Below are positions 3,001-62,979 of a stretch of 64,000 nt of DNA, in pieces. The notes under the pieces were generated by a model. It saw only the letters and a list, made by a program, of their open reading frames with translations, ran no database searches and was not told the DNA's origin. The stretch spans positions 1,301 through 65,300 of the forward strand of contig JAGLUP010000004.1 of the NCBI GenBank assembly GCA_023134715.1, read 5' to 3'. Source of the DNA: Candidatus Parcubacteria bacterium. Its GTDB lineage: Bacteria > Patescibacteriota > Minisyncoccia > Minisyncoccales > JAGLUP01. Both the position numbers and the translations under genes were made by a program. Numbering within the stretch: position 1 is the stretch's first letter; every line of letters starts with the position of its first letter.

Positions 3001-4047
3001 GCCCGCCTGAATATCTGCCCCGCCTGCATCGCTATGCGAAGCATTGCGGGCAGGAAGATTTTCGGCGGGTTCCGTGGTTGTGGCTATCTCTTCTGTTGTT
3101 GTAGCTATCTCTTCTGTTTCACTGACCTCCTCTATCGCCACATCCTCTTCTACCTCAGTTAATTCTTCCACAAATTCATCAATGCCAGTATCTGTCTCAA
3201 CATCGTCATCACTCAACTCTTCACTGACAAACTCTCCGCATATTAATGTAAGCGCCCCTGTTTTATAAACAGCTGAATTTGCTTCAGAAAAATTATTAAT
3301 ATCTCCATTGGACAAAACATCAGGCGGCCCTTGCGCATTTTCTGAATTTTGCCAACCACCCGTAAATTGAGTCGGATAAAAATTAATAATCTCTGTCTCC
3401 CCTCCTGTAATGGCCGTGATAACAGAATTTTGTAAAAATTTTATAGGAGCAAAACCAGAAAGTAAAAACAATACTACAAAAGCCGCTAAAGCAAATCTCC
3501 AACCAAATTGAAAAGTTTTTATAGTTTTTATATGTTTAATCCACGGGATTAAACAATTTTTAATTTCTGAAATTTGCTTTTTTAATTTTTTAAACGCAAC
3601 TACTTTAAACGCAACCACAGGAATAGGAACTGACACACGTCGGGTCTGTGTTAATTTTAAGGTTTTTCTATTTTTATATTCCATCACTGCTCTTTTTGTA
3701 GTTTGTAAAGAAACTCCAGAATAAGCTTTTCTTCCTTTGAGCTTTCCCTCGCGAATCAAAAAACCAATATAGTCAGAACTATAACCAGAAATTTTTGCCG
3801 CTTGTTTTAAAGAAAGATATCTTCTCCTCAATAAAGAAGAAGAATCTCGGGTAGCGAGATTTTTTGTTTTTTTACAGCATTTTATTATCTCTTTTGGAGT
3901 AATTTTCCAAGAACTTTTAAGAGAAATTTTTCTCCCTTTTATTTTTTTCTCCCGAATTAAAAAACCAATATGGTCAGAGCTATAACCAGAAATTTTTGCC
4001 GCTTGTTTTAGAGAAATATATTTACTTTTTTCTTTGTTTTCTTTCAT
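1..4047 (-). CDS. Giant membrane-anchored surface protein, C-terminus off-window (>=1349 aa)
   Basis: The minus-strand frame appears open from ATG (4047-4045) to the window edge; I translated it only in part by eye. It is probably missing from the ORF track because no stop lies in the window. The N-terminus has two HTH-like repeats (YISLKQAAKISGYSSDHIGFLIREKKIKGRK / YLSLKQAAKISGYSSDYIGFLIREGKLKGRK), then one hydrophobic helix (FGWRFALAAFVVLFLLSGFAPI), then an acidic T/E/D-rich linker. The distal part (SSAQTGNWDATSTWSGGVVPTSADDVTILDTHTVTVNVSNATSSSLTINSGGTLTF) looks like parallel beta-helix adhesin repeats. Confidence 0.8.
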   Translation of the reverse strand, partial: MKENKEKSKYISLKQAAKISGYSSDHIGFLIREKKIKGRKISLKSSWKITPKEIIKCCKKTKNLATRDSSSLLRRRYLSLKQAAKISGYSSDYIGFLIREGKLKGRKAYSGVSLQTTKRAVMEYKNRKTLKLTQTRRVSVPIPVVAFKVVAFKKLKKQISEIKNCLIPWIKHIKTIKTFQFGWRFALAAFVVLFLLSGFAPIKFLQNSVITAITGGETEIINFYPTQFTGGWQNSENAQGPPDVLSNGDINNFSEANSAVYKTGALTLICGEFVSEELSDDDVETDTGIDEFVEELTEVEEDVAIEEVSETEEIATTTEEIATTTEPAENLPARNASHSDAGGADIQAGGEPALPDDSILETDTPAQNEIIIIEETIEATTTEEIEAADEIISEPVISDEPISFFEKAKRELKNIFGSIGLVQAQENKVFQSAKIKFSFALGEKEQDILLEEPVGFWNSFKKSISRIKTWGSKFEEAVKGIGDLIIVEAEENIEDEHPEVLSNIDDKIIIWYSLDGESWDKLGIISSSPLSNALNHGYFEYEAPLLKSEEGIKNLKIKFDGTVGGETNITAYLDSVWVEASYTKENETKHEIDTKDKPRIRIKDSHLLISPLGEKSFHSNEEPVFVIKEPEFTVKQLQELVNVNEAEIIEGEFYKNQETRTASIIEPIKEFIDGIVEEVIENVLEPIFNREDGEPAESPADNQAGGEPALPDDSILETDTPAQNEIIIIEPAESPDPEGEPAVPYGADNQAGEEAKTMEAVATTTEEIATTTEPAESPEDNQAGGEIIGAMKKAIKKIVFVPQVAAQVEPNNFRIKIFNPMGQESLIEAHVITKFIDNKQGFEIKIPKPGRDFYPGKWKMEIEIETDEAILISEQDFTWGVLAININKSIYLSGSDSSAYIQMGVLDDIGKTICNADLTLIVKSPAGVEKEFSTEDETIQRSSECGPSTITNTPDYYAYYDIPDELGLYELYLTAITRNGVREIFDSFEVRESVAFDVERIGPTRIYPPAFYEVTLKIKANEDFVGQVIESAPASFEVVHETGTKLNTKPHENTKEIIWQVDWEAGEEYELKYQFDAPDISPYLYLLGPLEFHSDSLVFKELRSWQIAVDAAISSAQTGNWDATSTWSGGVVPTSADDVTILDTHTVTVNVSNATSSSLTINSGGTLTFLNSTDTSLTTNGTTSITGTLSIGTSGARIGSSYTAALKFNSSADDACDLTVNSGGALNMYGAVLSYYKTTLASNATSSQADLITSDTTGWVAGDILGVGGNSFGESEKMTISSVSGTTITLTGNLSNTHVTGSYIINLTRNAVIEETNSASYQSDVNVSSGGDLNIDCALFKELGHWSSQ
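1697..1728 (+). repeat. GC-rich palindromic element, copy 1 (inside giant ORF)
   Basis: CCCGCCTGATTGTCCTCAGGACTTTCGGCGGG. It has a 6-bp outer stem, an internal loop, a 4-bp inner stem and a triloop. Confidence 0.85.
1793..1857 (+). repeat. GC-rich palindromic element, copy 2 (expanded, nested hairpin)
   Basis: It has the same CCCGCCTGATTGTCC...GGACTTTCGGCGGG termini, with an inserted CCCCGTAGGGAACCGCAGGTTCTCCTTCGGGG hairpin. Confidence 0.8.
1858..1942. repeat. 85-bp direct repeat inside the giant ORF (partner at 2926..3010)
   Basis: The string CTCAATAATAATTATTTCATTCTGCGCAGGAGTATCGGTTTCAAGAATGCTGTCGTCAGGCAAAGCTGGCTCCCCGCCCGCCTGA is identical at both sites. A second ~37-bp repeat lies at 1719-1755 / 3059-3095. 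Confidence 0.9.
1934..1965 (+). repeat. GC-rich palindromic element, copy 3
   Basis: CCCGCCTGATTGTCCGCAGGACTTTCGGCGGG. Confidence 0.85.
3002..3069 (+). repeat. GC-rich palindromic element, copy 4 (divergent, expanded)
   Basis: CCCGCCTGAATATC...GATTTTCGGCGGG with a nested GC hairpin (CCCCGCCTGCATCGCTATGCGAAGCATTGCGGGCAGG). Confidence 0.7.
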
Positions 4048-4473: not shown

Positions 4474-4686
4474 TTATTTTACTTCAAAAACTTTGTTTCT
4501 TTCTCTAAACCCTTTAATCAATCTAACGCTCTGATTGGGAAAATGTTCTGCTAAAACTTTAATCACCGCTCTGTTCGCTTCCCCTCTTATGGGCGCCTCT
4601 TTTACTTTTATCTCAAAACTGTCCTGAGATTTTTTAATTATCTCTTGCTTTATTGAATCAGGAAAAACTTTTACTTTTATTAACAT
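4474..4686 (-). CDS. DUF167 / YggU-family protein
   Basis: This 70-aa protein carries ...EAPIRGEANRAVIKVLAEHF...VRLIKGFRERNKVFEV, which fits the YggU pattern (G-x-AN ... G-x-x-x-R-x-K). Confidence 0.75.
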   Translation of the reverse strand: MLIKVKVFPDSIKQEIIKKSQDSFEIKVKEAPIRGEANRAVIKVLAEHFPNQSVRLIKGFRERNKVFEVK

Positions 4687-4774
4687 TAATTAATTTTAAC
4701 ATAAAAATAAAATCCCTCAAAATAATTTTATTTGCTTCGCCACTAATTATTTGATATGATGAAGTTGCAGTCCC

Positions 4775-4853
4775 GGAGCGGGGCGGTAAGTTAATTGGCA
4801 AACTCCAGGACCTGTCACTCTTGGAAATGCGGGTTCGAATCCCGTCCGCTCCA
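4775..4853 (+). tRNA. tRNA-Asp(GTC)-like gene, aberrant (possible pseudo-tRNA)
   Basis: The T arm GCGGG-TTCGAAT-CCCGT, acceptor 3' CCGCTCC, D arm AGTT-AATTGGCA-AACT and loop CTGTCAC (anticodon GTC) resemble bacterial tRNA-Asp. However, the 5' acceptor is duplicated (GGAGCGG then GGCGG). The anticodon stem pairs only if the loop is 8 nt (CAGGA-CCTGTCAC-TCTTG). Confidence 0.45.
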
Positions 4854-5092
4854 ATGGGGCTGTTTTTTTAGTTTTCCCCACATTAGGACTTGACAAAATA
4901 TCTGACTCTGTTACACTAAAAGTAAAAGAGTGACAGGTCAAGTTTGCCAAACGGCTTACTGTAACGAAAGGGTCCTCCTCATTTTGAGAGGTCTCTTTTA
5001 TTTTATTCAAATTTGTATTATAATAATCTTGTAATGCTGCCATATTATTGGTGGCTTTTTGATTCAACAAGATTGCTGAAACATTGACAATC

Positions 5093-5227
5093 TCAAATCC
5101 TAACCACTGCCCTATTTGCCTCCCCTCTTATGGGCGCCTCTTTTACTTTTATTTCAAAACTATCCTGAGATTTTTTAATTATCTCTTGCTTTATTGAATC
5201 AGGAAAAACTTTTACTTTTATTAACAT
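5093..5227 (-). pseudogene. Truncated 5' copy of the DUF167 gene
   Basis: MLIKVKVFPDSIKQEIIKKSQDSFEIKVKEAPIRGEANRAVVRI* is near-identical in DNA to 4556-4686. The similarity continues about 35 bp into the upstream region, so the repeat pair is roughly 4556-4721 vs 5097-5261. Confidence 0.75.
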
Positions 5228-5311
5228 TGATTAATTTTAGCATATAAACAAAATCCCTTAAAGAGTTAAGGGATTTTGTTTATTTCTTAATCTTTCTTTA
5301 TTCTAAAACTT

Positions 5312-6898
5312 CTAAAAAGAAATTTCAAGGGCAGTGGCTACACTAGCTAAAAATTGTTTGATTGTTTCAAAAAATGTTTGCGGTTCCTCAAAAAAAGGAG
5401 CTGCTTCTTCTGACTGTGGTTCTTGCATAGGCGCAAATTCTTTTTGAGGCATCATCATACCTTGTTCTGGAGGTGTCATTTCTATATATCCTTCTGGAGG
5501 TGTCATTTCTATATATCCTTCTGGAGGTGTCATTTCTATATATCCTTCTGGAGGCGTCATCATTTGTTTCATTTTCTCTGCGTCTTCCGAACTCATCATG
5601 CCTTCTTTGACAGAAAAATTAAAACATTCTTCCATATGTTCAGGATTATCGCAATACGCTTTGCATTCTTCCGGCGTCTGACAACCGCCCGGACCGCCTG
5701 GACCCTCTGGTCCAATTTTTTTAACCATTTCAACTTCTTCCGGCTTTACTAATCCCATTTTCTGACCAAATTCCATACATTCCTGCATATGTTCCGGGTC
5801 TTGACAATAAGCATCACATTCTTCCGGCGTCTGACAACCGCCCGGACCGCCCGGACCGCCAGGCCCAAATTGTTCTCCTATTTTTTTTGTCTCTTCTGCT
5901 TCTTCAGAACTCATAAACCCGGCTTTAACAGCAAATTCCATACATTCCTGCATATTATCAGGATTATTACAATATGCTTCGCATTCCTCTTTTCCCTGAC
6001 ATCCGCCAGGACCGCCAAAAATTCCTGCTTTCGCCATCTTCCTTACTTGTTCTGCTTCTTCAGAGCTCATAAACCCGGCCGCCTCGCCAAAATTAACACA
6101 CTCTTCCATATGCTCTGGCTGGGAACAATAGATGTCGCATTCTTGTTTGTTTCCACACATCGGCGGTTTAATGCCTTTTTCCAATGCCTGAAGCATCATT
6201 CTTGCCTCTTTTTCTTCCTCTGCCGGCATAAGTCCATACTTAAGACCAAACTCTATACACTCTTTCATATGGTCTGGGTTATTACAATAAGCATCGCATT
6301 CCTCTTTTCCCTGACATCCGCCTGGTCCTTTCCCTCCGGTCTTACGAATCATTCCTGCTTCTTCAGAGCTCATAAACCCGGCCGCCTCGCCAAAAGTAAT
6401 ACATTCTTCAAGATGTTCTATCTGAGAGCAATAAATATCACACTCTTGTTTTCCGCGGCAAGGAGGTGGTTTTACTCCTTTTTTAATCGCTATTAGAGCT
6501 TGTTCTGCTTGGGCAAGTTCTTCCGGGGGAATCAAGTTATGCTCTTTGCCAAAAATAATACACTCTTCCATATGCTCCGGCTCATCACAATATATCTCGC
6601 ACTCTTCCTGACCTTGACAGCCGCCTGGGCCAGCCATTGTCTCGAGCATCTCGAGCATTTTCCTGTCTTTTTCTATTTCTTCCTGAGAAAGTAAATTATG
6701 GGCTTCAGCAAAATCAAGACAGGCCTTAGTATTTTCTTCTAAATCGCAATATGCCTCACATTCCTCCATACTGACGCAATTTCCTAATTCAGGAATAGGA
6801 AAATTAACATCAGATAGCAAATCCTCCTCAGCAAACGCAAAACCGCAAAAACCTAAAAAAATAAAAGTAAAAATAAAAACAAAATAAACCTTTTTCAT
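5312..6898 (-). CDS. Secreted cysteine-rich repeat protein (8 x four-Cys module; C-terminal TPPEGYIEM x4)
   Basis: A signal peptide (MKKVYFVFIFTFIFLGFCGFAFA) is followed by eight repeats of about 45-55 aa, of the form (GPGG)C-x4-5-C-x3-C-x8-9-C, e.g. GPGGCQGKEECDAYCNNPDHMKECIEFG. A proline/glutamate-rich tail follows. Confidence 0.85.
   Translation of the reverse strand: MKKVYFVFIFTFIFLGFCGFAFAEEDLLSDVNFPIPELGNCVSMEECEAYCDLEENTKACLDFAEAHNLLSQEEIEKDRKMLEMLETMAGPGGCQGQEECEIYCDEPEHMEECIIFGKEHNLIPPEELAQAEQALIAIKKGVKPPPCRGKQECDIYCSQIEHLEECITFGEAAGFMSSEEAGMIRKTGGKGPGGCQGKEECDAYCNNPDHMKECIEFGLKYGLMPAEEEKEARMMLQALEKGIKPPMCGNKQECDIYCSQPEHMEECVNFGEAAGFMSSEEAEQVRKMAKAGIFGGPGGCQGKEECEAYCNNPDNMQECMEFAVKAGFMSSEEAEETKKIGEQFGPGGPGGPGGCQTPEECDAYCQDPEHMQECMEFGQKMGLVKPEEVEMVKKIGPEGPGGPGGCQTPEECKAYCDNPEHMEECFNFSVKEGMMSSEDAEKMKQMMTPPEGYIEMTPPEGYIEMTPPEGYIEMTPPEQGMMMPQKEFAPMQEPQSEEAAPFFEEPQTFFETIKQFLASVATALEISF
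5467..5560. repeat. 27-bp tandem repeat x3.5 (coding)
   Basis: CTGGAGGTGTCATTTCTATATATCCTT is repeated. It encodes the (M)TPPEGYIE repeats of the Cys-rich protein. Confidence 0.9.
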
Positions 6899-9270: not shown

Positions 9271-9374
9271 GAAAACGCAGAAAACCAATTTTCTAAATCG
9301 TGGGGCCCCGCCTTGGCGGGGTAGGGCGCGGTTAGGGGGAAACGATTTAGGAAATTAGGTTTTCGGAGTTTTCG
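9271..9374. repeat. Structured intergenic repeat, family A, copy 1
   Basis: A ~30-bp inverted-repeat stem (GAAAACGCAGAAAACCAATTTTCTAAATCGT / ACGATTTAGGAAATTAGGTTTTCGGAGTTTTC) flanks GGGGC-[CCCGCCTTGGCGGG]-GTAGGGCGCGGTTAGGGGGA. Confidence 0.85.
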
Positions 9375-9440
9375 TAAGTTTAATTTGCTTTATTAAAGTA
9401 TACCAAACTTCAAAACGCAAAACAACAAGCTATTTAAAAT

Positions 9441-9479
9441 TATCCTATTTCATCCACGGCCGTGGATGAAATAGGATAA
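9441..9479 (-). terminator. Long perfect palindrome downstream of the prs-like gene
   Basis: TTATCCTATTTCATCCACGG/CCGTGGATGAAATAGGATAA, followed by a U-run on the minus strand (ATTTTAAA). Confidence 0.5.
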
Positions 9480-13270: not shown

Positions 13271-13376
13271 AAAAACGAAGAAAACAAATTTTGAAATCGT
13301 GGGGCATCCCGATAGGTGAAAGCTATCGGGAGGTAGGGCGCGGTTAGGGGGAAACGATTTCAAAATTTAGTTTTCG
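13271..13376. repeat. Structured intergenic repeat, family A, copy 2
   Basis: It has the same arms and the same GTAGGGCGCGGTTAGGGGGAAACGATTT core as copy 1. The apical hairpin is replaced by CCCGATAGGTGAAAGCTATCGGG. Confidence 0.85.
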
Positions 13377-13382
13377 TAGTTT

Positions 13383-14225
13383 TTAAAATTTAAAATTAAG
13401 CAATTTACCTTTTGAATAAGCCCTTACTAATTCTTTAGAATAAGGAATTTCTTTTTTAATTTTTGTTTTAAATTTTTTAGCGATTTTTTCAACTTTTGTT
13501 TTATCTCCTAAGTCTGCCTGATTTAAAATTATTTTAATCGGTGTTTTAAGCTTTTGGCATAAATCCAAAATTAAACTTAAATCCATTGCTCCCATTGGCG
13601 TTGGTTCAGTAATAATATAAGCGAAATCAACATCTAAAAGAGCGTTAATTACAGGGCAATGAGTGCCAGCCGCCGTATCAAACAAAATATAATCTGCTTT
13701 TACTTTTTTAGCAAAATCTAAGGCAAATTTTTTTGTCTGAGCCACAACCGGCCCTGTTTCTTCAAGTCCTGCATTTGCTTGTCCTGTCGCCAACCAAAAA
13801 TTCTTCTCAATAGGATTAACAAAAATCTGGCCAATTTCTTGTTTTTGAGATTTAATAGCTTTATAAGGACAAACAATCCAGCACGCGCCGCAGCCAGAAC
13901 ATAAATCTTTAACAAATATCGGATATTTCCCTGCCTGTTGAAAAATAGCGTTATTTCGACAGGTTCTAGCGCACAGACCGCACTTTCTGCATTTTGATTT
14001 AATTAATTTTGGAAACTCCGCAAAAACCCTTTGCATCGGTTTTCTTAATTTCTGGCCAAGTAATAAATAGTCATTAGGGCATTCCACGTCACAGTCGCAA
14101 AGAATAACTTTCTTGCCTTTTTTTATTAATTTATTAGCAAATAAAACAGCGACCGTGGATTTTCCTACACCACCCTTGCCGCCGGAAATTGCTATCTGTT
14201 TAATTTTCTTTCGCATTATTCTCAA
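13383..14225 (-). CDS. MinD/ParA-superfamily P-loop ATPase with 2x[4Fe-4S] ferredoxin insert (paralogue)
   Basis: SGGKGGVGKST, CRKCGLCARTC and CSGCGACWIVC. Confidence 0.85.
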   Translation of the reverse strand: MRIMRKKIKQIAISGGKGGVGKSTVAVLFANKLIKKGKKVILCDCDVECPNDYLLLGQKLRKPMQRVFAEFPKLIKSKCRKCGLCARTCRNNAIFQQAGKYPIFVKDLCSGCGACWIVCPYKAIKSQKQEIGQIFVNPIEKNFWLATGQANAGLEETGPVVAQTKKFALDFAKKVKADYILFDTAAGTHCPVINALLDVDFAYIITEPTPMGAMDLSLILDLCQKLKTPIKIILNQADLGDKTKVEKIAKKFKTKIKKEIPYSKELVRAYSKGKLLNFKF

Positions 14226-16923: not shown

Positions 16924-16929
16924 TATCTT

Positions 16930-16938
16930 ATTCTACCA
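16930..16938 (-). promoter_or_regulatory. Extended -10 TGGTAGAAT, 6 nt from the xth ATG (leaderless type)
   Basis: Minus strand: TTTTTTGGTAGAAT-AAGATA-ATG. Confidence 0.5.
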
Positions 16939-16974
16939 AAAAACCGCCTGCTTAGCCAGTTTTACGTTTTACAC

Positions 16975-17064: not shown

Positions 17065-18345
17065 ATGAGTAACGGCAAAAATAATCACAAAAAAAGAATA
17101 GCAATGTTCAGTGTTCACTCTGACCCATCAGCTAAGTTGGGCGGGCACGAAACAGGAGGACAAAATGTTTATGTTTCTGAATTAAGCAAGGCATTAGGAC
17201 GAATCGGCTGGTCAGTTGATATTTTTACTAGATTGACCAGGAAAAGAACAAAATTAGTCAAAGCTTATGGAAAAAATGTAAATATTATATATATAAAGGC
17301 AGGCCCTCGCTATCTTATACCTAAAGACAAAGCACTGGAAAAATTACCAGAATTTGTTGGTAATTTTCTTGCTTATAAGGAAGAAAACAAAATTAATTAC
17401 AAAATAATTCATGGAAATTATTACTTGGGTGGATGGACAGCTGCTCAAATCAAAAGAATACTGCGTGTTCCAATGGTAGAAACCTTTCACTCATTGGGTC
17501 ATATTCGTCATCGCACTTTAGAAAAATTTGAAAAAGAAAATATTAACATTGAAAACTTTAAAGAACGACTAATAGCTGAAAAAGAAATAATGGAAGCAGC
17601 TGACACTATAATTGCAACGAATCCTCCAGAAAAAAAAGACCTTATGCATTATTATGATTTTGATTTGGAGAACAAAATAAAAATTATCCCCTGTGGAGTT
17701 AATTTAAAACGTTTCCAGAAAGTAAACCTTGAAAATGCCAGAGATTATATCAATCATTTTTCTAAAAAAGATAAAATAATCACATACATCGGGCGGATAG
17801 ATTGGCGCAAAGGAATTGAAACATTAATTAGGGCTTTCCCTTTAGTTTCAAAAAGATTACCTGAATTAAGTTTAAATATAATAATTGTAGGCGGAAAAAT
17901 CGGCAAAAAGGGCGACCCAGCTGACAAAAAAGAAATTGCCCGATTAAAAGATATAGTTAAGGAATTAAAGATTGAGAAAAAAATCTTATTTTTAGGTAGA
18001 AGAGATCAGAAAAAACTCCGTTACTATTATTCAGCTAGCGACATCTTTGTAATTCCCTCTTACTACGAACCATTTGGTATGACAGCATTAGAGGCAATGC
18101 GCTGTGGCGTGCCTATTATTGCCTCAAATGTAGGCGGACTTTCTTATATTATACAAAATAGAAAAACAGGAATTTTTTTCCCGCCAAAAAATCATAGAAT
18201 TCTTGCAAGAAAAATCATCGAACTTTTAAAAAACAAAAAGCTAAGAAATAAATTAACTAAAAACGCTGAAGTAATCGTAAAAGAAAACTATGGCTGGAAT
18301 AAAATTGCTTCAGATGTGTCAAAATTATACCAAGAATTATTATGA
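17065..18345 (+). CDS. GT4 glycosyltransferase (sucrose-phosphate-synthase / MshA-like)
   Basis: IAMFSVHSDPSAKLGGHETGGQNVYV and YYEPFGMTALEAMRCGVPIIA. I prefer the start at MSNGK because the track's longer ORF overlaps xth antisense. Confidence 0.8.
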   Translation: MSNGKNNHKKRIAMFSVHSDPSAKLGGHETGGQNVYVSELSKALGRIGWSVDIFTRLTRKRTKLVKAYGKNVNIIYIKAGPRYLIPKDKALEKLPEFVGNFLAYKEENKINYKIIHGNYYLGGWTAAQIKRILRVPMVETFHSLGHIRHRTLEKFEKENINIENFKERLIAEKEIMEAADTIIATNPPEKKDLMHYYDFDLENKIKIIPCGVNLKRFQKVNLENARDYINHFSKKDKIITYIGRIDWRKGIETLIRAFPLVSKRLPELSLNIIIVGGKIGKKGDPADKKEIARLKDIVKELKIEKKILFLGRRDQKKLRYYYSASDIFVIPSYYEPFGMTALEAMRCGVPIIASNVGGLSYIIQNRKTGIFFPPKNHRILARKIIELLKNKKLRNKLTKNAEVIVKENYGWNKIASDVSKLYQELL

Positions 18346-19741: not shown

Positions 19742-19785
19742 TTGTATAACACATATACCACGATCGTTGTATGTGTGTTATACAA
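19742..19785. repeat. 44-bp palindrome centred on CGATCG, copy 1
   Basis: TTGTATAACACATATACCACGATCGTTGTATGTGTGTTATACAA. Confidence 0.85.
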
Positions 19786-21841: not shown

Positions 21842-21849
21842 ATTATTTT

Positions 21850-21858
21850 ATTCTACCA
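21850..21858 (-). promoter_or_regulatory. Extended -10 TGGTAGAAT, 8 nt from the obg ATG (leaderless type)
   Basis: Minus strand: hairpin, then TTTTTTGGTAGAAT-AAAATAAT-ATG. Confidence 0.5.
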
Positions 21859-21884
21859 AAAAATCGCCCTCTTGGCGATTTTTT
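21858..21884 (-). terminator. Intrinsic terminator of the csp gene
   Basis: AAAAAATCGCC-CTCTT-GGCGATTTTTT. Confidence 0.7.
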
Positions 21885-26240: not shown

Positions 26241-26311
26241 ATATTCTATTCTACCAAAAAACCATCTTCCTATCAAAAGCAAAACAGGGCTTTCGCCCCG
26301 TTTTTGATAAC

Positions 26312-32710: not shown

Positions 32711-32716
32711 TATTTT

Positions 32717-32725
32717 ATTCTACCA
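32717..32725 (-). promoter_or_regulatory. Extended -10 TGGTAGAAT, 6 nt from the ATG (leaderless type)
   Basis: Minus strand: TTTTTTGGTAGAAT-AAAATA-ATG. It is preceded by the terminator hairpin at 32750-32774. Confidence 0.5.
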
Positions 32726-32909
32726 AAAAATATCGCTCCTATCAAAAACAAAACAGAGCTTCCGCTCTGTTTTTAATCATTTGCCTCTCTGGCGATTTTC
32801 CTTAGCTCGGCTCCCCTTGCGGGACGCGTTCAGAACCGTTGTCCTAAAAAATAAAAACTACCAATTTTGGTAGTTAAAAACGGATCACCCTGAAATGAAA
32901 CATTTGATA

Positions 32910-34191: not shown

Positions 34192-34410
34192 AGTTCTTAT
34201 ATTAATTTTGAGTTCATTCTTTTTATTTTTCCTTTATTTTATTATACCAAATAAAGGAAATAAGAAAAACCCAAGAATTCTTTTTGGGCTAATTTGGCTC
34301 CGCATCGTGAACAACGTTAGAACCGCAATCCAAGAAGCAGATGGGCATATTTATATACCGGAATTAAAATAAAAGGTGACTAATTCCATTTTCTTCTAAT
34401 TTTAGAACGC

Positions 34411-36042: not shown

Positions 36043-36048
36043 ATTTTT

Positions 36049-36057
36049 ATTATACCA
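36049..36057 (-). promoter_or_regulatory. Extended -10 TGGTATAAT, 6 nt from the ATG (leaderless type)
   Basis: Minus strand: hairpin AAAATCGCCTTTTTGGCGATTTT, then TTGGTATAAT-AAAAAT-ATG. Confidence 0.5.
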
Positions 36058-36209
36058 AAAAATCGCCAAAAAGGCGATTTTCCTACAAGCTCCGGATAAG
36101 AAACCGCATCAAACTTAATGCTAGAGGCTATAAAAAATTAATTAAAAAACAAAAAATAATCTAGTAAACTAAATTTCTAGAATTCAATAAAGATGCCCCT
36201 TATATTCTT

Positions 36210-38757: not shown

Positions 38758-39996
38758 TTAGTAGCCGCGAAGTTTTTTTAGTTTTTCGTGTTCTCTGATT
38801 TTTTGAAGGGACTTGGCTTCAATTTGCCGAATTCTTTCTCTGGTAACGCTAAATACCACTCCCACTTCTTCCAAAGTATGAGTAATATCATCCTTTAAGC
38901 CAAACCTCATTGACAAAATCTTTTGCTCACGCGGACTTAAATCAGATAAAATCTCATTCAATCGCTCTCTTAAAAGCTTTCGCGCCGCGCCCAAATAAGG
39001 CGGAGCTGTTTTTTCATCTTTAATAAACTCTGCCAAAACATTATCTTCTTCTTTTTCTCCAACCGGTGTTTCTAAAGAAATTACTTCTTGAGAAATTTTC
39101 ATTATGTGGCGAACTTTGGGAATACTAAGTTCCATCTCAGCCGCGACTTCTTCTGGCAAGGGTTCCCTGCCCAAGCTCTGCAAAAGCTGCTGCCTAACTC
39201 TGGTATATTTAGAAATTGTTTCCACCATGTGAACTGGAATCCGCACAGTTCGAGCGTGGTCGGCTAAAGCTCTGGTAATTGCCTGCCTTATCCACCAAGT
39301 AGCGTAAGTAGAAAACTTATATCCCCTTCTCCAGTCAAATTTTTCTACTGCCCGAAAAAGCCCTAAATTTCCTTCTTGGATTAAATCAAGCATGGTTAAA
39401 TTTGGCGACCGTCCGACATATTTCTTAGCGATAGAGACAACTAATTTCAAATTCCGCCAAATCATTTTTCTTCTTGCTTCATCGTCTCCCTTTTCAATTC
39501 TTTTAGCTAATTCTTTTTCCTCTTTAGCAGTCAAAGATTGCGATCTGCCAATTTCTTTTAAATAAATTTGAATTGGATCTATTTTTGCCCGGCCTATTGT
39601 TTTAACCGGCTTTTCTGAATCTTTTTTTATTTCTAAAAATTCTTTTCTGTCTTTTATTTCAATTCTTTCCTGCTCTAATTTATAATAAAGATCTTCTAAA
39701 TTTTCAATATTTTGTTCTATATTCGGAAAAAAGTTTAAAATTTCGGCAAGAATAACAAAACCCCGCTGCCTTCCCCTTTTAATTAAAGAAGCGACTTTTC
39801 CTGCGTCTAATTCCCGACGGCCTATTCGCTTTTTAGGTTCTGCTTTTTTAAAAACCTTCTTTTTTATTCTTTTCTTTATTGTTTTTTTCTCTACTTTTTT
39901 CTTGGTCGGTTTTAAAATCTTTTTCTTTTTTTGAAGTTTTCTTGCCCGCCTGATTGTCCGAAGGACTTTCGGCGGGTTGATTTTTTTCTTAATCAT
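38758..39996 (-). CDS. rpoD: Primary sigma factor RpoD with Lys-rich N-terminal extension
   Basis: [13 protein letters not shown], region 4 [24 protein letters not shown]. Confidence 0.9.
39945..39976 (+). repeat. GC-rich palindromic element, copy 5 (inside rpoD, different frame)
   Basis: CCCGCCTGATTGTCCGAAGGACTTTCGGCGGG, read here as [11 protein letters not shown]. Confidence 0.85.
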
Positions 39997-45402: not shown

Positions 45403-46299
45403 TTATACCTTTATTCCGCGGAGAGCTTTTGTTCTCTCCTCTACTGGCGGATGGGTCTGAAAAAGTTTAGTAAACCAACTTTTAGATTGATCGCCTCTAA
45501 AAGGCGAAGAAATATAAAGATGCGCCGTTGAATTATTAGCTCTTTTTAAAGGAGCTGAATCAGCTGAAATTTTTTCTAAAGCACGAGCTAATCCTTCTGG
45601 ATATCTTGTAAGCAAAGCGCCTGTGGCGTCAGCTAAAAATTCTCTTTTTCTGGAAACAGCAAGCTTAATCGTTGTTGCCGCCAAAGGAGCTAAAATTGCG
45701 GCTAAAATTCCCAAAATAATCAAAAGTGTCCCTCCTGATTCTCTGCGCCGCCTCCCCCCGCCCCAAAAAGTCATTCTTAAAAACATATCTGAAAGTATTG
45801 CCACAGTCCCGACTAAAACCACGACAACTGTTCCTAAAAGCATATCTTTATTCTTAATATGAGCAAGTTCGTGAGCAATCACGCCTTCTAATTCTGCTCT
45901 GTCTAATTTTTCCAATAATCCCTTAGTTACCGCTATTACCGCATGCTTTTCATCTCTACCAGTGGCAAAAGCGTTTGGCTGAAGTTCGTTTAAAATATAA
46001 ATTCTTGGCAAGGGCAAACCAGCGGTAATGCAAAGATTTTCAACCAAGCGATAAAGCTCTGGATTATCTCTTTTTTCAATTAATTTAGCATGAACCATTG
46101 CCAGCACAATTTTGTCTGAATACCAATAACTGGTAAAACTCATTAAAACGCTAAAAACCACTGCTATTATCAAAATAATCTGATTATCAAGCGTATAGCT
46201 GAAAAACCAGCCAAGAGCAATGACAAAAATAAGAAAACCTGTTATCAATAACCAAGTTTTCCGAGTATTTGATTCGGCGTGACTATATAATGTAGACAT
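45403..46299 (-). CDS. htpX: Zinc metalloprotease HtpX (M48)
   Basis: HELAHIKNKD and TM helices. The start is set at MSTLYSH because the upstream 10 codons belong to a repeat element. Confidence 0.9.
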   Translation of the reverse strand: MSTLYSHAESNTRKTWLLITGFLIFVIALGWFFSYTLDNQIILIIAVVFSVLMSFTSYWYSDKIVLAMVHAKLIEKRDNPELYRLVENLCITAGLPLPRIYILNELQPNAFATGRDEKHAVIAVTKGLLEKLDRAELEGVIAHELAHIKNKDMLLGTVVVVLVGTVAILSDMFLRMTFWGGGRRRRESGGTLLIILGILAAILAPLAATTIKLAVSRKREFLADATGALLTRYPEGLARALEKISADSAPLKRANNSTAHLYISSPFRGDQSKSWFTKLFQTHPPVEERTKALRGIKV

Positions 46300-46303
46300 A
46301 AAA

Positions 46304-46440
46304 GAAAACGCAGAAAACAAATTTTTCAAGGCGAAAATTCTGTATTTTCTGAGACGCGTAGGGCTCCCTCCCGATAGGTGGAAGCTATCGGGATGGGATA
46401 AAGCGCGAAGAAAAGACAGAATTTGAGCAAGAAAAATTTT
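46304..46440. repeat. Structured intergenic repeat, family B copy 1 (preceded by a family-A-like arm)
   Basis: GAAAACGCAGAAAACAAATTTTT (the family A arm), then GCGAAAATTCTGTATTTTCTGAGACGCG-TAGGGCTCCCT-[CCCGATAGGTGGAAGCTATCGGG]-ATGGGATAAA-GCGCGAAGAAAAGACAGAATTTGAGC. Confidence 0.85.
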
Positions 46441-46993
46441 AAAACTGAACTTTTGGTGTTTCTCGCTCTTCTGCTTCTGTTAGTTCAAATAATTCCATCT
46501 TTTTAAAACCAAACATATTGGCAATAATACTTGATGGAAAACTCTCAACCTTAATGCTTAAATCCCGAACATTAGTGTTGTAAAATCTTCTTGCCGCTTG
46601 AATTTTATCTTCAGTATCCCGCAATTCTCTCTGAAGCTCTAAAAAATTCTGAGACGCTTTTAAGTCAGGATAACTTTCAGATACGGCAAAAAGAGATTTC
46701 AAAGCGCCGGTAAGCATATTTTCCGCTTGTCCATGCTCTTGAACTGATTGCGCTCCCATTGCTTTAGTCCTGGCTTCGGTCACTTTTTGAAAAACTTCTT
46801 TTTCATGACCAGCATATCCTTTCACTGTTTCCATCAAATTGGGAATTAAATTATATCTTCTCTTTAGCTGGACATCAATATCAGCCCATGCCTCTTGCGC
46901 CCGATTGCGAAGTTTTACCAAGCTGTTATAAACAGCAATTATTCCTAAAGCCAAAACCGCAACCACGATTAAACCTAAATATAATGAATCCAT
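46439..46993 (-). CDS. lemA: LemA family protein
   Basis: An N-terminal TM helix and the motifs RYNLIPNLMETVKGYAGHEKE...RRFYN. Confidence 0.85.
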   Translation of the reverse strand: MDSLYLGLIVVAVLALGIIAVYNSLVKLRNRAQEAWADIDVQLKRRYNLIPNLMETVKGYAGHEKEVFQKVTEARTKAMGAQSVQEHGQAENMLTGALKSLFAVSESYPDLKASQNFLELQRELRDTEDKIQAARRFYNTNVRDLSIKVESFPSSIIANMFGFKKMELFELTEAEERETPKVQF

Positions 46994-55437: not shown

Positions 55438-55481
55438 TTGTATAACACATATAGCACGATCGTTGTATATGTGTTATACAA
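55438..55481. repeat. 44-bp palindrome centred on CGATCG, copy 2
   Basis: TTGTATAACACATATAGCACGATCGTTGTATATGTGTTATACAA. Confidence 0.85.
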
Positions 55482-58681: not shown

Positions 58682-58768
58682 GCGGGTGTGGCGGAATTGG
58701 CAGACGCGTACGGTTCAGAGCCGTATAGCCGCAAGGCTGTGGAGGTTCAAGTCCTCCTACCCGCACCA
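58682..58768 (+). tRNA. tRNA-Leu (CAG), CCA encoded
   Basis: A type II tRNA: anticodon arm TACGG-TTCAGAG-CCGTA, a long variable arm, T arm GGAGG-TTCAAGT-CCTCC, 3' ACCA. Confidence 0.85.
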
Positions 58769-58777
58769 ACAAAAATT

Positions 58778-60478
58778 ATGTATAAATCAACAAAACACCA
58801 ACAATTTAAAAAACCAGATAACCTGCGAATTATTCCTCTCGGCGGGCTTGGCGAGGTTGGACGAAATATGACGCTTTTTGAATACAAAGGCAAGATTTTA
58901 ATTATTGACGTAGGCCTGCGAATGCCGGAAGAAGATATGCCGGGAATAGATTTTATTATTCCAGATATCAGCTATCTTAAGAAAAAACAAAAAAATATCC
59001 TAGGTATTGTCTTTACTCACGGCCATTATGACCACATCGGCGCTCTCCCCTATCTTGTTGAGAAATTAGGCAATCCCTTAATGTTTGCCTCCAAATTAAC
59101 TAAGGGAATTATCCTAAAAAGACAGGAAGAATTTCCTTTTAAGTCAAAGTTGGAAATTGTAGAAGTGGAAGATAAGTCCCGAATTAAATTAGGACCCTTT
59201 AAAATTGAATTCTTTCATCAAAACCACAACATTCCGGGCAATTTGGGTCTTTTTATTCAAACGCCAGCTGGAAATATTGTTCATACCTCTGATTTTAAAT
59301 TTGACAAAACTCCGATAAATGAAGCTCCTGTTGATTTTAATTATTTAGAACAAATAGGCAGGCAAAAAATTCTTCTCTTAATGTCTGATTCAACAGGGGC
59401 AGAAGAAAACGGGCGATCTCTTTCAGAAAGTGATATTTCTAAAAATTTAGAAGAAATTTTCAAAAACGCGCAAGGCAGAATTATTTCCGCCACTTTTTCT
59501 TCTTTAATTAATCGGATTCAGCAAATTATTTCTCTCTCGGAAAAATATAAAAGAAAAGTCGCAATAGAAGGATATTCAATGAAAAACAATATAGAACTCG
59601 CGAGGAATTTAGGATATCTTAAGATCAAAAAAGAAATTATTATTTCTACTAAAGAAATTAAAAATTATCCTGATTCCAAGGTAACTGTTCTCTGCACCGG
59701 CGCTCAAGGAGAAGGCCGCGCGGCTCTAATGAAAATCGCCAATAGAGAACACCGCATTCTGCGCCTGAAAAAAAATGACACAATTATTTTTTCATCCTCT
59801 GTTATCCCGGGAAATGAACGAACTGTCCAAATTTTAAAAGACGAACTCTACAGGCAAAAAGCAAAAGTTTTTCATTATAAAATGATGGATATTCACGCGG
59901 GCGGCCACGCCAAGCAAGAAGAACTGAAAAAAATGATACAGCTGATAAAGCCAAAATTCTTCCTCCCTATCCATGGCCAGTATTCTATGTTAGTAAGCCA
60001 TGCTGAACTTGCTCAAAGCGTTGGCATTCCTCAAAAAAACATAATAGTTATTGAAAACGGCCAAGCAATTGATTTGAATGTTCAAGGATTTTCTTTGGAT
60101 AAAAGAAAAATTCCTTCAAGCTATGTAATGGTTGATGGATTAGGAGTCGGAGACATAGGCGAAGTAGTATTGCGCGATCGCCAAGCGTTGGCTGAAGATG
60201 GAATGTTTGTTATAATTGTAGTTATTGACAGGCAAAAAGGCAAAGTCAAAGGAAGTCCTGATATAATCTCCAGAGGATTTGTTTATCTTAGAGAATCAAA
60301 AGGACTGCTTCAGGAAACCCGGAAAAAAGTAATTGAAATAGTTGACAAAGCAGCTGGAACAGGAGGCGCGGTAAACTGGGTTTATGTAAAAGATGAAATC
60401 AGAAACAAAATCGGCCAATTTTTCTTTTCTAAAACCAAACGCCGACCAATGATCTTGCCTGTAGTAATTGAGGTCTAA
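58778..60478 (+). CDS. rnj: Ribonuclease J (beta-CASP metallo-beta-lactamase)
   Basis: LRIIPLGGLGEVGRNM and HGHYDHIG. The start is set after the tRNA. Confidence 0.9.
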   Translation: MYKSTKHQQFKKPDNLRIIPLGGLGEVGRNMTLFEYKGKILIIDVGLRMPEEDMPGIDFIIPDISYLKKKQKNILGIVFTHGHYDHIGALPYLVEKLGNPLMFASKLTKGIILKRQEEFPFKSKLEIVEVEDKSRIKLGPFKIEFFHQNHNIPGNLGLFIQTPAGNIVHTSDFKFDKTPINEAPVDFNYLEQIGRQKILLLMSDSTGAEENGRSLSESDISKNLEEIFKNAQGRIISATFSSLINRIQQIISLSEKYKRKVAIEGYSMKNNIELARNLGYLKIKKEIIISTKEIKNYPDSKVTVLCTGAQGEGRAALMKIANREHRILRLKKNDTIIFSSSVIPGNERTVQILKDELYRQKAKVFHYKMMDIHAGGHAKQEELKKMIQLIKPKFFLPIHGQYSMLVSHAELAQSVGIPQKNIIVIENGQAIDLNVQGFSLDKRKIPSSYVMVDGLGVGDIGEVVLRDRQALAEDGMFVIIVVIDRQKGKVKGSPDIISRGFVYLRESKGLLQETRKKVIEIVDKAAGTGGAVNWVYVKDEIRNKIGQFFFSKTKRRPMILPVVIEV

Positions 60479-60489
60479 AATTTTTGAAT

Positions 60490-60578
60490 GCGAAAATTCT
60501 GGATTTTCTGAGACGCGTAGGGCTCCCTCCCGCCTTGGCGGGAAGGGATAAAGCGCGAAGAAAAGACAGAATTCGAGC
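60490..60578. repeat. Structured intergenic repeat, family B copy 2
   Basis: It has the same backbone as 46331-46428. The apical hairpin is replaced by CCCGCCTTGGCGGG. Confidence 0.85.
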
Positions 60579-60597
60579 AATGAAAAAAAAATAAACA

Positions 60598-61572
60598 ATG
60601 CGAGTTTTAAGCGGCATTCAGCCGACTGGACAATTACATATTGGAAACTATTTAGGAGCAATAAAACAATGGATTGAACTTCAACAAGAAAATGAATGTA
60701 TTTTTTTTATTACTGATTTGCACGCCATAACTCTTCCACGCGACCCTAAAACTTTTCAAAAAGAAATTTTAAATACAGCGGTAGAATATCTTGCCACAGG
60801 GCTTGATCCAGAAAAATCCATTATTTTTGTTCAATCTCAAGTTAAAGAGCACACTGAACTTTGCTGGCTTTTAAATACCATCACGCCTGCAGCGGAACTA
60901 TTTCGTATGACCCAATACAAAGATAAAAGCCAGCAATTTAAAAAAAATATTAATGCCGGACTATTAGATTATCCTGTCCTTCAGGCCGCTGATATTCTTC
61001 TTTATCAAACTGATATAGTGCCTGTTGGAAAAGATCAGCTCCAACATTTAGAATTAAGCAGAATTATTGCTCGAAAATTTAACAATCGCTTTGGTGAAAC
61101 CTTTAAAATTCCAAAAGCATATGTATCTAAAACAGGAGCCAAAATTATGTCTTTAGAAAATCCAAAAAAGAAAATGTCAAAATCAATCCCATCCTCCTGC
61201 CTTTTCCTATTTGACGAACCAAAAGAAATTAAGAAAAAAATTATGTCAGCCACCACTGACTCTCAAAAAATTATAAAATACGACCCAAAAAAAAAGCCGG
61301 GGATATCTAATCTCCTAACCATCTATTCGCTTTTCAGCAACAAATCAATAAAAGATTTAGAAAAAAAATTTAAAGGAAAAAATTACGCTGAATTTAAAAA
61401 ATCCTTAGCCCAGCTTCTAATTTTAAAATTAGAACCTTTCAGAAGAAAGAAAAAAGAACTTCTCTCAAGAGAAGTTTATGTCCAGGAAATCCTTAATAAG
61501 GGAGAAAAAAGAGCTCGCTCTATTGCCCAATCCACAATCACAGATGTCCGCCAAAAAATGGGCCTTGCTTAA
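60598..61572 (+). CDS. trpS: Tryptophan--tRNA ligase
   Basis: SGIQPTGQLHIGNYLGA and KMSKS. Confidence 0.95.
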   Translation: MRVLSGIQPTGQLHIGNYLGAIKQWIELQQENECIFFITDLHAITLPRDPKTFQKEILNTAVEYLATGLDPEKSIIFVQSQVKEHTELCWLLNTITPAAELFRMTQYKDKSQQFKKNINAGLLDYPVLQAADILLYQTDIVPVGKDQLQHLELSRIIARKFNNRFGETFKIPKAYVSKTGAKIMSLENPKKKMSKSIPSSCLFLFDEPKEIKKKIMSATTDSQKIIKYDPKKKPGISNLLTIYSLFSNKSIKDLEKKFKGKNYAEFKKSLAQLLILKLEPFRRKKKELLSREVYVQEILNKGEKRARSIAQSTITDVRQKMGLA

Positions 61573-62934: not shown

Positions 62935-62974
62935 CTCAAATACTTTACCTGCGGCCGCAGGTAAAGTATTTGAG
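62935..62974. repeat. 40-bp perfect palindrome centred on GCGGCCGC
   Basis: CTCAAATACTTTACCTGCGG/CCGCAGGTAAAGTATTTGAG. Confidence 0.9.
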
Positions 62975-62979
62975 TATGT

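Follow-up and report, generated by a model that had tools for sequence, protein, structure and literature searches.

Two families of intergenic hairpin elements with common tip hairpins in Parcubacteria

Four hairpin elements, which belong to two families named here A and B, lie between genes in a stretch of 64,000 nucleotides of the Candidatus Parcubacteria contig JAGLUP010000004.1; this whole stretch is called the window. TrpS homologues place the source among Nealsonbacteria-like Parcubacteria, the nearest genome being Parcubacteria DG_74_2 with 90% amino-acid identity in TrpS and the next nearest reaching at most 77%. B2, a rod hairpin of the form GCGA...GAGC at 60490-60579 on the + strand (fold; CM R1, 85.5 bits), has a fold z of -5.0 as RNA and -4.0 as DNA and is located between the genes of RNase J (58688-60478, +) and TrpS (60598-61572, +); its entire insertion, gauged against the empty sites in relatives, covers about 60481-60597. 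B1 is a rod hairpin at 46330-46429 on the + strand (fold; CM R1, 87.5 bits), between the genes of an M48/HtpX peptidase (45403-46299, -) and LemA (46439-46993, -), and is extended to about 46304-46438 by an A-type left arm (46304-46318 onward) and an outer AT stem. The A model matches the B1 region at 46301-46358. A1 (9271-9373, +; A model, 117 bits) is built by arms of about 30 bp (GAAAAC-NNN-GAAAAC... / ...GTTTTC-NNN-GTTTTC), a G-rich asymmetric core and the tip hairpin hp1, and has a PRPP-synthetase-like gene and a beta-propeller protein as neighbours, while A2 (13271-13384, +; A model, 120 bits), which has the A1 backbone with the tip hairpin hp2, lies between two MinD/Fer4 ATPases. The neighbours of all four elements were assigned with Pfam. 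The backbone common to A1 and A2 is distinct from that of B1 and B2. A third A copy, A3, is found on the + strand of L001 at 18110-18229, which corresponds to about 68.7 kb in window terms, 4.7 kb past the window end, and is located between the rpoC stop and the ftsK start. Its tip is a third hairpin, hp3, of the form CCCCTCCTTTTCGCG-CTTG-CGCAAAAGGAGGGG. These five copies come from about 75 kb read of a 391-kb scaffold.

The two families have tip hairpins in common. The hairpin hp1 (CCCGC-CUUG-GCGGG) matches CCCGCCTTGGCGGG exactly on A1 (9307-9320, +) and on B2 (60529-60542, +), and these are the only two occurrences of CCCGCCTTGGCGGG in the 64-kb window, a number reached in 0 of 100 shuffles. 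The 23-nt hairpin hp2, represented by CCCGATAGGTGGAAGCTATCGGG, is present on B1 (46370-46392, +; loop GTGGAAG) and, with one mismatch, on A2 (13308-13330, +; loop GTGAAAG); the window has this one exact and this one single-mismatch occurrence, and the shuffles have no matches. A scan of the window for GC-rich hairpins detected hp1 and hp2 nowhere outside the four elements, and no copy of hp1, hp2 or hp3 was seen standing alone or anywhere but at the tip of an A or B element. B1 and B2 have 95% identity across 55 nt 5' of the hairpin and 92% across 48 nt 3' of it, which bears out the original prediction that B2 is the B1 backbone with the hairpin of A1, and the B1 hairpin is indeed that of A2 with one base different, a substitution in the loop. 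The gene context and strand had also been described correctly, B1 lying in the minus-strand lemA-htpX unit and B2 in the plus-strand rnj-trpS unit with both copies on the + strand. The proposal of two interchangeable cassettes on two backbones stands insofar as hp1 and hp2 each occur on both backbones, but at least four tip variants exist. The picture of two cassettes is a sampling effect, as at least three tip types are found on the A backbone in the source genome. The identity of hp1 (14/14) and of hp2 (22/23) across two unrelated backbones points to recent copying between tips, and the homology that flanks the exchanged hairpins consists of TCCC/GGGA alone.

Every element folds, on either strand and both as RNA and as single-stranded DNA, into a single long hairpin with imperfect pairing, with a stem of 25-40 bp and a stability of z -4 to -8.6 relative to shuffled controls. 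The predicted fold energy is -33 to -58 kcal/mol for the A and B copies of the source genome, and the spacers of A1, A2, B1 and B2 are the most structured intergenic regions of the window. No coding capacity was found in the A and B elements. From the outside inward, the B hairpin has an AT stem, a GC segment with a G·A/A·G mismatch, a 7-bp stem, a tandem G·A and a 6-bp stem, followed by a GAGA bulge opposite a single A, a CGCG/CGCG helix, a UAGGGC / UAAAG loop, a UCCC(U)/(A)GGGA helix and the tip hairpin. The conserved 5' core of B, GAGACGCGTAGGGC, located on B2 at 60510-60523 (+), contains the GAGA bulge, the CGCG helix and the UAG... loop and is invariant in 8/8 B copies from three lineages; the conserved 3' core in the B alignment, TAAAGCGCGA, is located on B2 at 60549-60558 (+). 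The interior of A, after the arms, is formed by UGGGGC, the tip hairpin and about 20 nt of unpaired G-rich sequence, GUAGGGCGYGGUUAGGGGGAAA. The heptamer GTAGGGC is common to A and B, at the 5' side of the tip in B and at the 3' side in A, and it occurs four times in the window, only on the + strand and only in the four elements.

In the alignment of eight B sequences, 84.9% of the helix cells are paired, compared with at most 60% when the partner is slid, both sides have changed in 12 of the 29 pairs, and 0 of 500 shuffles reach the observed level of covariation. Compensatory changes are also present in the arms of A. Covarying stems are combined with invariant internal loops, and the structure is maintained.

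The fold favours one strand. Among the non-Watson-Crick cells of the B helices, 32 are G·A or A·G and 10 are G·U, compared with two A·C. The G-rich strand is 2-10 kcal/mol more stable than its complement in 11 of 11 elements and has 24 G·U pairs against 4 on the complement, and CUUG caps hp1, hp3 and the tip of the B variant Y, described below, on this same strand, which also contains Shine-Dalgarno-like sequences. With G·A and G·U as its mismatches when read on the G-rich strand, the fold is strand-specific and not orientation-free.

Orientation is not random either, as all five source-genome copies are on the + strand. GC skew is below zero throughout the window, in each of its 4-kb bins and also in the two islands of plus-strand genes, and from this indirect indicator we infer the leading-strand template to be the + strand. 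Of the 14 A and B copies in the genomes compared, 11 have the G-rich strand antisense to both flanking genes, the exceptions being B2 and two copies in a Wildermuthbacteria gap-B-ppa-B-fba arrangement. Gene direction and strand can be told apart in the source genome by B2 alone, and the orientation of B2 goes with the strand. In this small sample, the orientation pattern is compatible with mobilisation tied to replication or with selection against the G-rich strand in mRNAs. A G-rich strand that is usually absent from mRNA and that lies on the inferred leading-strand template does not fit the simplest model of single-stranded DNA at the lagging-strand template.

An exact 19-mer of the B core, searched in one genome each of 185,579 species, was found in two CPR MAGs and in one chance match, the latter in L006 (Terriglobia) with no hairpin around it. 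The two MAGs are Minisyncoccales JBARPC01 and a bin with Ppa annotated as Wildermuthbacteria. Such large DNA scans used exact-match patterns and would not show diverged copies. The core GAGACGCGTAGGGCUCCC...GGGAUAAAGCGCGAG in both MAGs is identical to that of the source, while the outer stems have a wholly different sequence with the pairing kept, and the tips in L002-L005 are a bare 3-nt loop (UCCC-UUU-GGGA or UCCC-UCG-GGGA). One protein alone is common to the source and JBARPC01 loci, and its two versions have 58% identity. About 110 kb of sequence from the relatives of the source genome contain neither B nor A copies, a metagenome scan with the A core GTAGGGCGCGGTTAGGGGG gave just one GC-rich chance match (L007), viral contigs have no match to the A core, hp2 or the gapped B core, and blastn searches of B2 against a phage collection and of A1 against a plasmid collection gave no match. 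In the Wildermuthbacteria arrangement gap-B-ppa-B-fba, two B copies flank ppa. In Wildermuthbacteria MAGs, 17 nt of the B 5' end (GGCGAAGGAAGCGTTCT) also recur a third time, just ahead of the fba start codon (L022, which is the same as L002, 787-812; L020, 3900-3920), and the AAGGAAG of this copy sits at the position of a Shine-Dalgarno sequence.

The ribosomal-protein operon of JBARPC01 contains four elements, all antisense to the genes: a B copy at secY-adk; Y, a B variant with a fourth tip, CCCAGCC-CUGCUUGCAU-GGCUGGG, at rpsE-rplO; X, an A-like element, at rplO-secY; and a truncated B at rplX-rplE. In the relative L015, whose flanking genes have 84-91% nucleotide identity to those of JBARPC01, X is present at the orthologous site with one mismatch in about 82 aligned nt and without the 30-nt tip hairpin of the JBARPC01 X, an indel bordered by GGGC...GGGC, and a mere 18-nt remnant of an element end is left at rpsE-rplO. 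The ends of the B unit, AATAACAACAAGGTGGCGAGG...CCGAGCAAACYG, are identical in the secY-adk spacer and within an A/X-type tip at L004, where the A model spans 2078-2251 full-length with B as an insert (E=3e-6). A-type left arms precede Y and also, in the window, B1. The layers are concentric, with the arms outside, then the A core or B rod and then the GC mini-hairpin, and the tip is the place where new material appears, which can be a mini-hairpin or a whole B unit. Tip hairpins that behave as modules independent of the backbone are supported by these arrangements, and the presence of hp1 and hp2 on both backbones would be explained by tips that gain, lose and copy stem-loops between elements. 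In the exchange, the mini-hairpins may insert independently, or palindrome centres may undergo ectopic gene conversion.

The junctions that hold the elements are nearly empty in relatives. The rnj stop and the trpS start are separated in the source by 119 nt, occupied by B2, and in L008, L011 and L012, relatives with TrpS 90%, 75% and 74% identical that include DG_74_2, by 4, 4 and 20 nt, respectively. The site of A3 is an overlap of rpoC and ftsK (ATGA) in DG_74_2, and secY-adk, which is filled by B in JBARPC01, has a 2-nt spacer in L015. B2 and A3 are insertions, since the same gene junctions measure 0-20 nt in the closest relatives. The identical core, the sporadic distribution and the empty sister sites together indicate a mobile element, possibly horizontally spread, and they do not fit a vertically inherited housekeeping RNA.

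Target-site duplications (TSDs), which the original prediction had proposed to look for, are not consistently present in the comparisons of filled and empty sites at rnj-trpS, rpoC-ftsK and secY-adk. The secY-adk junction reads CAT-AT-TTAA when empty (L015) and CAT-97 nt-TTAA when filled (JBARPC01), with no duplicated flank, and no TSD was seen at A3 (rpoC-ftsK) relative to the empty site in DG_74_2. B2 is flanked by a 6-7-nt repeat, AATGCGA, which may be a duplication or part of the element, as GCGA belongs to every B copy; both this repeat and GAAAAC/GAGAAC at element Y are explicable as part of the element or as a remnant. The left flanks of the insertions (TAAA, CAT, CAC and so on) have no common tetranucleotide in this small sample. 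The A and B elements enter tiny stop-to-start spacers without a consistent target-site duplication.

Like classical MITEs, A and B have long arms that are inverted repeats, measure about 100 nt, lie between genes and are present in several copies. Classical MITEs are deletion derivatives of an IS with a DDE transposase and are moved via terminal inverted repeats (TIRs). This origin is very improbable for A and B. No TSD was seen at secY-adk and rpoC-ftsK, and the AATGCGA at rnj-trpS could be a TSD or a part of the element. It is the internal core that is invariant between lineages, the outer arms being entirely different, whereas recognition of TIRs would predict the opposite. No related IS was found in the window, and no transposase, RT or HUH domain (including Y1_Tnp) is encoded by the window ORFs in 64 kb.

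Signatures of RNA genes or of regulation were not found at the elements. Rfam at gathering score gives four tRNAs and nothing else in the whole window, and around B2 and A1 it gives, at E<=10, nothing but eukaryotic noise matches. No terminator-like site (GC stem plus T-run) overlaps A1, A2, B1 or B2 on either strand, and no promoter-like site is located at any of the four. The promoter module of this genome, which is a terminator, then TTTTGGTAGAATAA and then ATG 6-8 nt downstream, is absent at the elements. Elsewhere in the window, TTTTGGTAGAATAA, an extended -10, follows a GC hairpin terminator and precedes a minus-strand ATG about 6-8 nt past the -10 (16928-16941, 21848-21861, 26246-26259, 32715-32728, 34239-34252 and 36047-36060), with 10 matches to the module against 2.9 expected, so that many leaderless, monocistronic transcripts are implied. 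The functions of the genes next to the elements are unrelated, and B is in sense orientation in rnj-trpS and gap-ppa-fba and antisense in lemA-htpX and in the spc operon; the mixed orientation and the unrelated neighbours are not those of a strand-specific cis-riboregulator. The original prediction had favoured a DNA-level or orientation-free element over a riboregulator. Its first part holds, with DNA-level insertion at the empty B2 and A3 sites, unrelated neighbours and no Rfam match, promoter or terminator, but the element is not orientation-free, as its fold is strand-asymmetric.

Several known motifs were compared with the elements and rejected. Judged by eye, a hammerhead does not agree with the sequences, as CUGA is not conserved and is replaced by CCGAGA or GCGAGA in other lineages, and a K-turn does not agree either, as the GAGA/A loop has no 3-nt bulge followed by tandem G·A. 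The loops of the hairpin ribozyme mismatch and it has no Rfam match, and SRP RNA was considered by eye and dropped. The G-tracts of the A core are borderline for a G-quadruplex, and the FtsK KOPS (GGGNAGGG) fits A1 and A3 only and on the wrong strand.

In another proposal, each element would be a small RNA gene of its own, present in several copies and transcribed as the G-rich strand whatever the direction of the operon around it, and the copies together would make up a new class of structured ncRNA in which the apical helix varies. Invariant internal loops and covarying helices in three lineages agree with this proposal, and so do the better folding of the G-rich strand in 11/11 elements, its 24 G·U pairs against 4, the CUUG tetraloops on hp1, hp3 and the Y tip, and apical helices of variable length, which are typical of RNA families. 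Such genes are nonetheless improbable, as a conserved upstream promoter is absent (the TTTTGGTAGAATAA type does not occur at the elements), there is no terminator, and the exact core is sporadic, being found in just 2 of many GTDB Parcubacteria genomes. Moreover, sister genomes have empty sites, truncated and nested copies exist, and antisense transcription through r-protein operons at four sites would be costly.

The main rival, which is not exclusive of the main reading given below but is rather unlikely, is that the elements are cis-acting structured RNA modules of polycistronic mRNAs, namely processing or stability hairpins (RNase III, 3'-exonuclease barrier) that are selected and whose spread by insertion is secondary. 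They are always located between a stop and the next start in apparent operons (lemA-htpX, rnj-trpS, the spc r-protein operon and gap-ppa-fba), their stems are long, at 25-40 bp, and they have no promoter or terminator of their own. The best evidence of constraint is X, which two species have kept at rplO-secY and whose arms have changed less than the genes. However, in most copies it is the C-rich complement that is transcribed, whereas the G·A, G·U and CUUG features belong to the G-rich strand, and both orientations relative to the genes occur, with B2 and L002 sense and the others antisense. Close relatives manage without the elements at the same junctions, and the functions of the neighbours are unrelated.

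A full-text literature search found no description of interspersed palindromic repeats in CPR bacteria, and several known systems share part of the properties of A and B. ERIC (or IRU) sequences are imperfect palindromes found in transcribed intergenic spacers in either orientation, with a core conserved across distant hosts and with size variants produced by insertions at fixed internal sites; they are not known to have a transposase or a TSD. A and B resemble them in being palindromes of about 100-130 nt with a conserved core, internal size variants and no TSD, but there is no sequence similarity, and A and B vary at the hairpin tip, have modules common to two families and reside in CPR hosts. 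REP/REPIN (RAYT) sequences and BIMEs are similar in their GC-rich imperfect hairpins, absence of TSD and mosaic modules, and also in their likely recognition as single-stranded hairpins and, for REPINs, in conserved ends with a variable centre. The GTAG that lies next to the hairpin in REP sequences has a possible counterpart in GTAGGGC, which every A and B copy has on the + strand only, but on different sides of the tip (5' in B, 3' in A). In contrast to REP/REPIN sequences, no RAYT gene was seen in the 64 kb searched, the arms of A and B are AT-rich and long, and copies are few, about one per 15 kb. The BOX elements of Streptococcus pneumoniae (boxA-boxB-boxC) have interchangeable sub-units and stable transcript hairpins like A and B, but their modules are linear with boxB in tandem, whereas those of A and B are nested concentrically in one hairpin.

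Correia elements and other bacterial MITEs are intergenic inverted repeats of about 100-150 nt that are co-transcribed as hairpins cleavable by RNase III, a likeness to A and B; their TIRs match an IS and they have a TA TSD, whereas in A and B no TSD was found and the conserved part is internal. The GC clusters of yeast mitochondria are, like the tips, short GC-rich palindromic modules that spread to multiple sites in an AT-rich genome, but they belong to an organelle and have another sequence, and hp1-hp3 are found only at A and B tips. Integron attC sites and IS200-IS605 ends share with A and B a strand-specific conserved structure that has few invariant unpaired bases and a free stem sequence, but A and B have no integrase or TnpA nearby, no R'/R'' core sites and no cassette array. 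PATEs derived from IS200/IS605, which have distinct subterminal hairpins at the left and right ends and insert 3' of a fixed tetranucleotide, also differ from A and B, which are a single long hairpin with no fixed tetranucleotide at the left flanks. Like mosaic repeats of the ERIC/BOX/BIME type, A and B are multi-copy, non-coding, intergenic hairpins present in either orientation and with modular variants.

A and B look like the kind of small palindromic repeat known from other bacteria and not like a gene regulator. Our main reading, with a probability of roughly 0.55, is that they are non-autonomous, TSD-less hairpin interspersed repeats, similar to REP, ERIC and BOX, with tips that are hot spots of module exchange. 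They would represent two families of non-coding hairpin insertion elements, of about 90-135 nt, in some Parcubacteria, and each hairpin has three layers, which are AT-rich outer arms, a family-specific middle and a variable tip. The middle layer has invariant purine-rich loops, GAGA / CGCG / UAG...UAAAG / CGCG in B and UGGGGC with the G-rich segment given above in A. At the tip hot spot, GC-rich stem-loops (hp1, hp2, hp3 and others) and whole B units would be gained, lost and copied. Recognition would depend on the structure and the invariant loops in a single-stranded form, with the G-rich strand folding best, and would involve a factor supplied in trans. After insertion, the elements would be merely co-transcribed with the flanking genes, and a very stable hairpin would be put into the mRNA in either orientation, possibly forming an RNase III or stability site as a side effect and not as the reason for its existence.

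Some observations count against this main reading. The 64-kb window encodes no transposase, HUH or RT domain that could move the elements. X is kept at one site in two species with 1 mismatch in about 82 nt while the genes are 84-91% identical, and its conservation looks like purifying selection, and so function, or like homogenisation, rather than neutral junk. Invariant loops, tandem G·A, G·U and CUUG caps are typical of functional RNAs. A tentative alternative, held with less confidence than the main reading, takes A and B for undescribed strand-specific, TSD-less hairpin mobile elements of CPR bacteria, which would insert at stop/start junctions and, by preference, at each other's tips with 'Russian-doll' nesting and would use a single-strand-specific recombinase that reads the B core (GAGA-CGCG-UAG...UAAAG-CGCG); otherwise, the B core may be a mobile functional RNA motif.

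CPR/Patescibacteria genomes have about 1 Mb and are thought to be streamlined. If the repeats are of the kind proposed in the main reading, selfish or semi-selfish DNA does invade these minimal genomes, with recent insertions into junctions that measure 0-20 nt in sister genomes and, in a related lineage, into the r-protein operon. How palindrome tips become hot spots of recombination and insertion can be approached through the concentric modularity of A and B, and the B core, common to lineages with about 58% protein identity, is a candidate for the site that an enzyme recognises or for an RNA motif. A and B repeats will also confound the assembly of MAGs and the annotation of intergenic RNAs in CPR genomes.

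A common origin with an intragenic palindrome of the window, CCCGCC-TGATTGTCC-NCA-GGACTTTC-GGCGGG, had been suggested on the basis of the CCCGCC/GGCGGG stem. The 6-bp stem is indeed common to both, but it is weak evidence of kinship because it is common in the window, where the + strand has CCCGCC 19 times and GGCGGG 11 times. One copy of the palindrome, at 39939-39979, lies in the N-terminal linker of RpoD, and three more (1691-1731, 1928-1968 and 2996-3036) lie in an ORF that has a G8 domain, exceeds 1352 aa and continues beyond the start of the window. The peptide encoded by the palindrome would be ...PAESP.DNQAG..., and the palindrome could be an in-frame insertion like the RPEs of Rickettsia or a common peptide linker. 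Three of its four copies are within larger in-gene direct repeats.

Other palindromes and repeats are present in the window and in related genomes. Long near-perfect palindromes with a CGGCCG or CGATCG centre, such as TTATCCTATTTCATCCACGGCCGTGGATGAAATAGGATAA, are located downstream of genes at 9440-9479, 19742-19785, 55438-55481 and 62945-62975, and palindromes of the same style, with covarying arms and a conserved centre, occur in related Parcubacteria (L014, 13487-13649; L015, 13415-13528). The S10-spc operons of L014, L015 and L018 have other palindromic spacers of 80-240 nt at many junctions, all antisense to the genes and at sites that vary between genomes. Some of these spacers have AT-rich arms of tandem 7-8-mers (TTTAACAT..., AATTTCT.../...TTGAAAA), and another family has G-rich cores and ends similar to those of B, 5' AAGCGAGG ... 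CCGAGC(A/G)A 3'. At 4780-4853 (+), ARAGORN reports a tRNA whose 'anticodon' is undetermined and has 2 bases; the Rfam tRNA model gives 48 bits here, and the site lies between two copies of a 171-nt direct repeat that are 90% identical (4551-4721 and 5092-5262). A 528-aa ORF with no Pfam match (5312-6898, -) contains tandem repeats of about 150-160 nt (5438-6619) and four copies of a 27-nt repeat.
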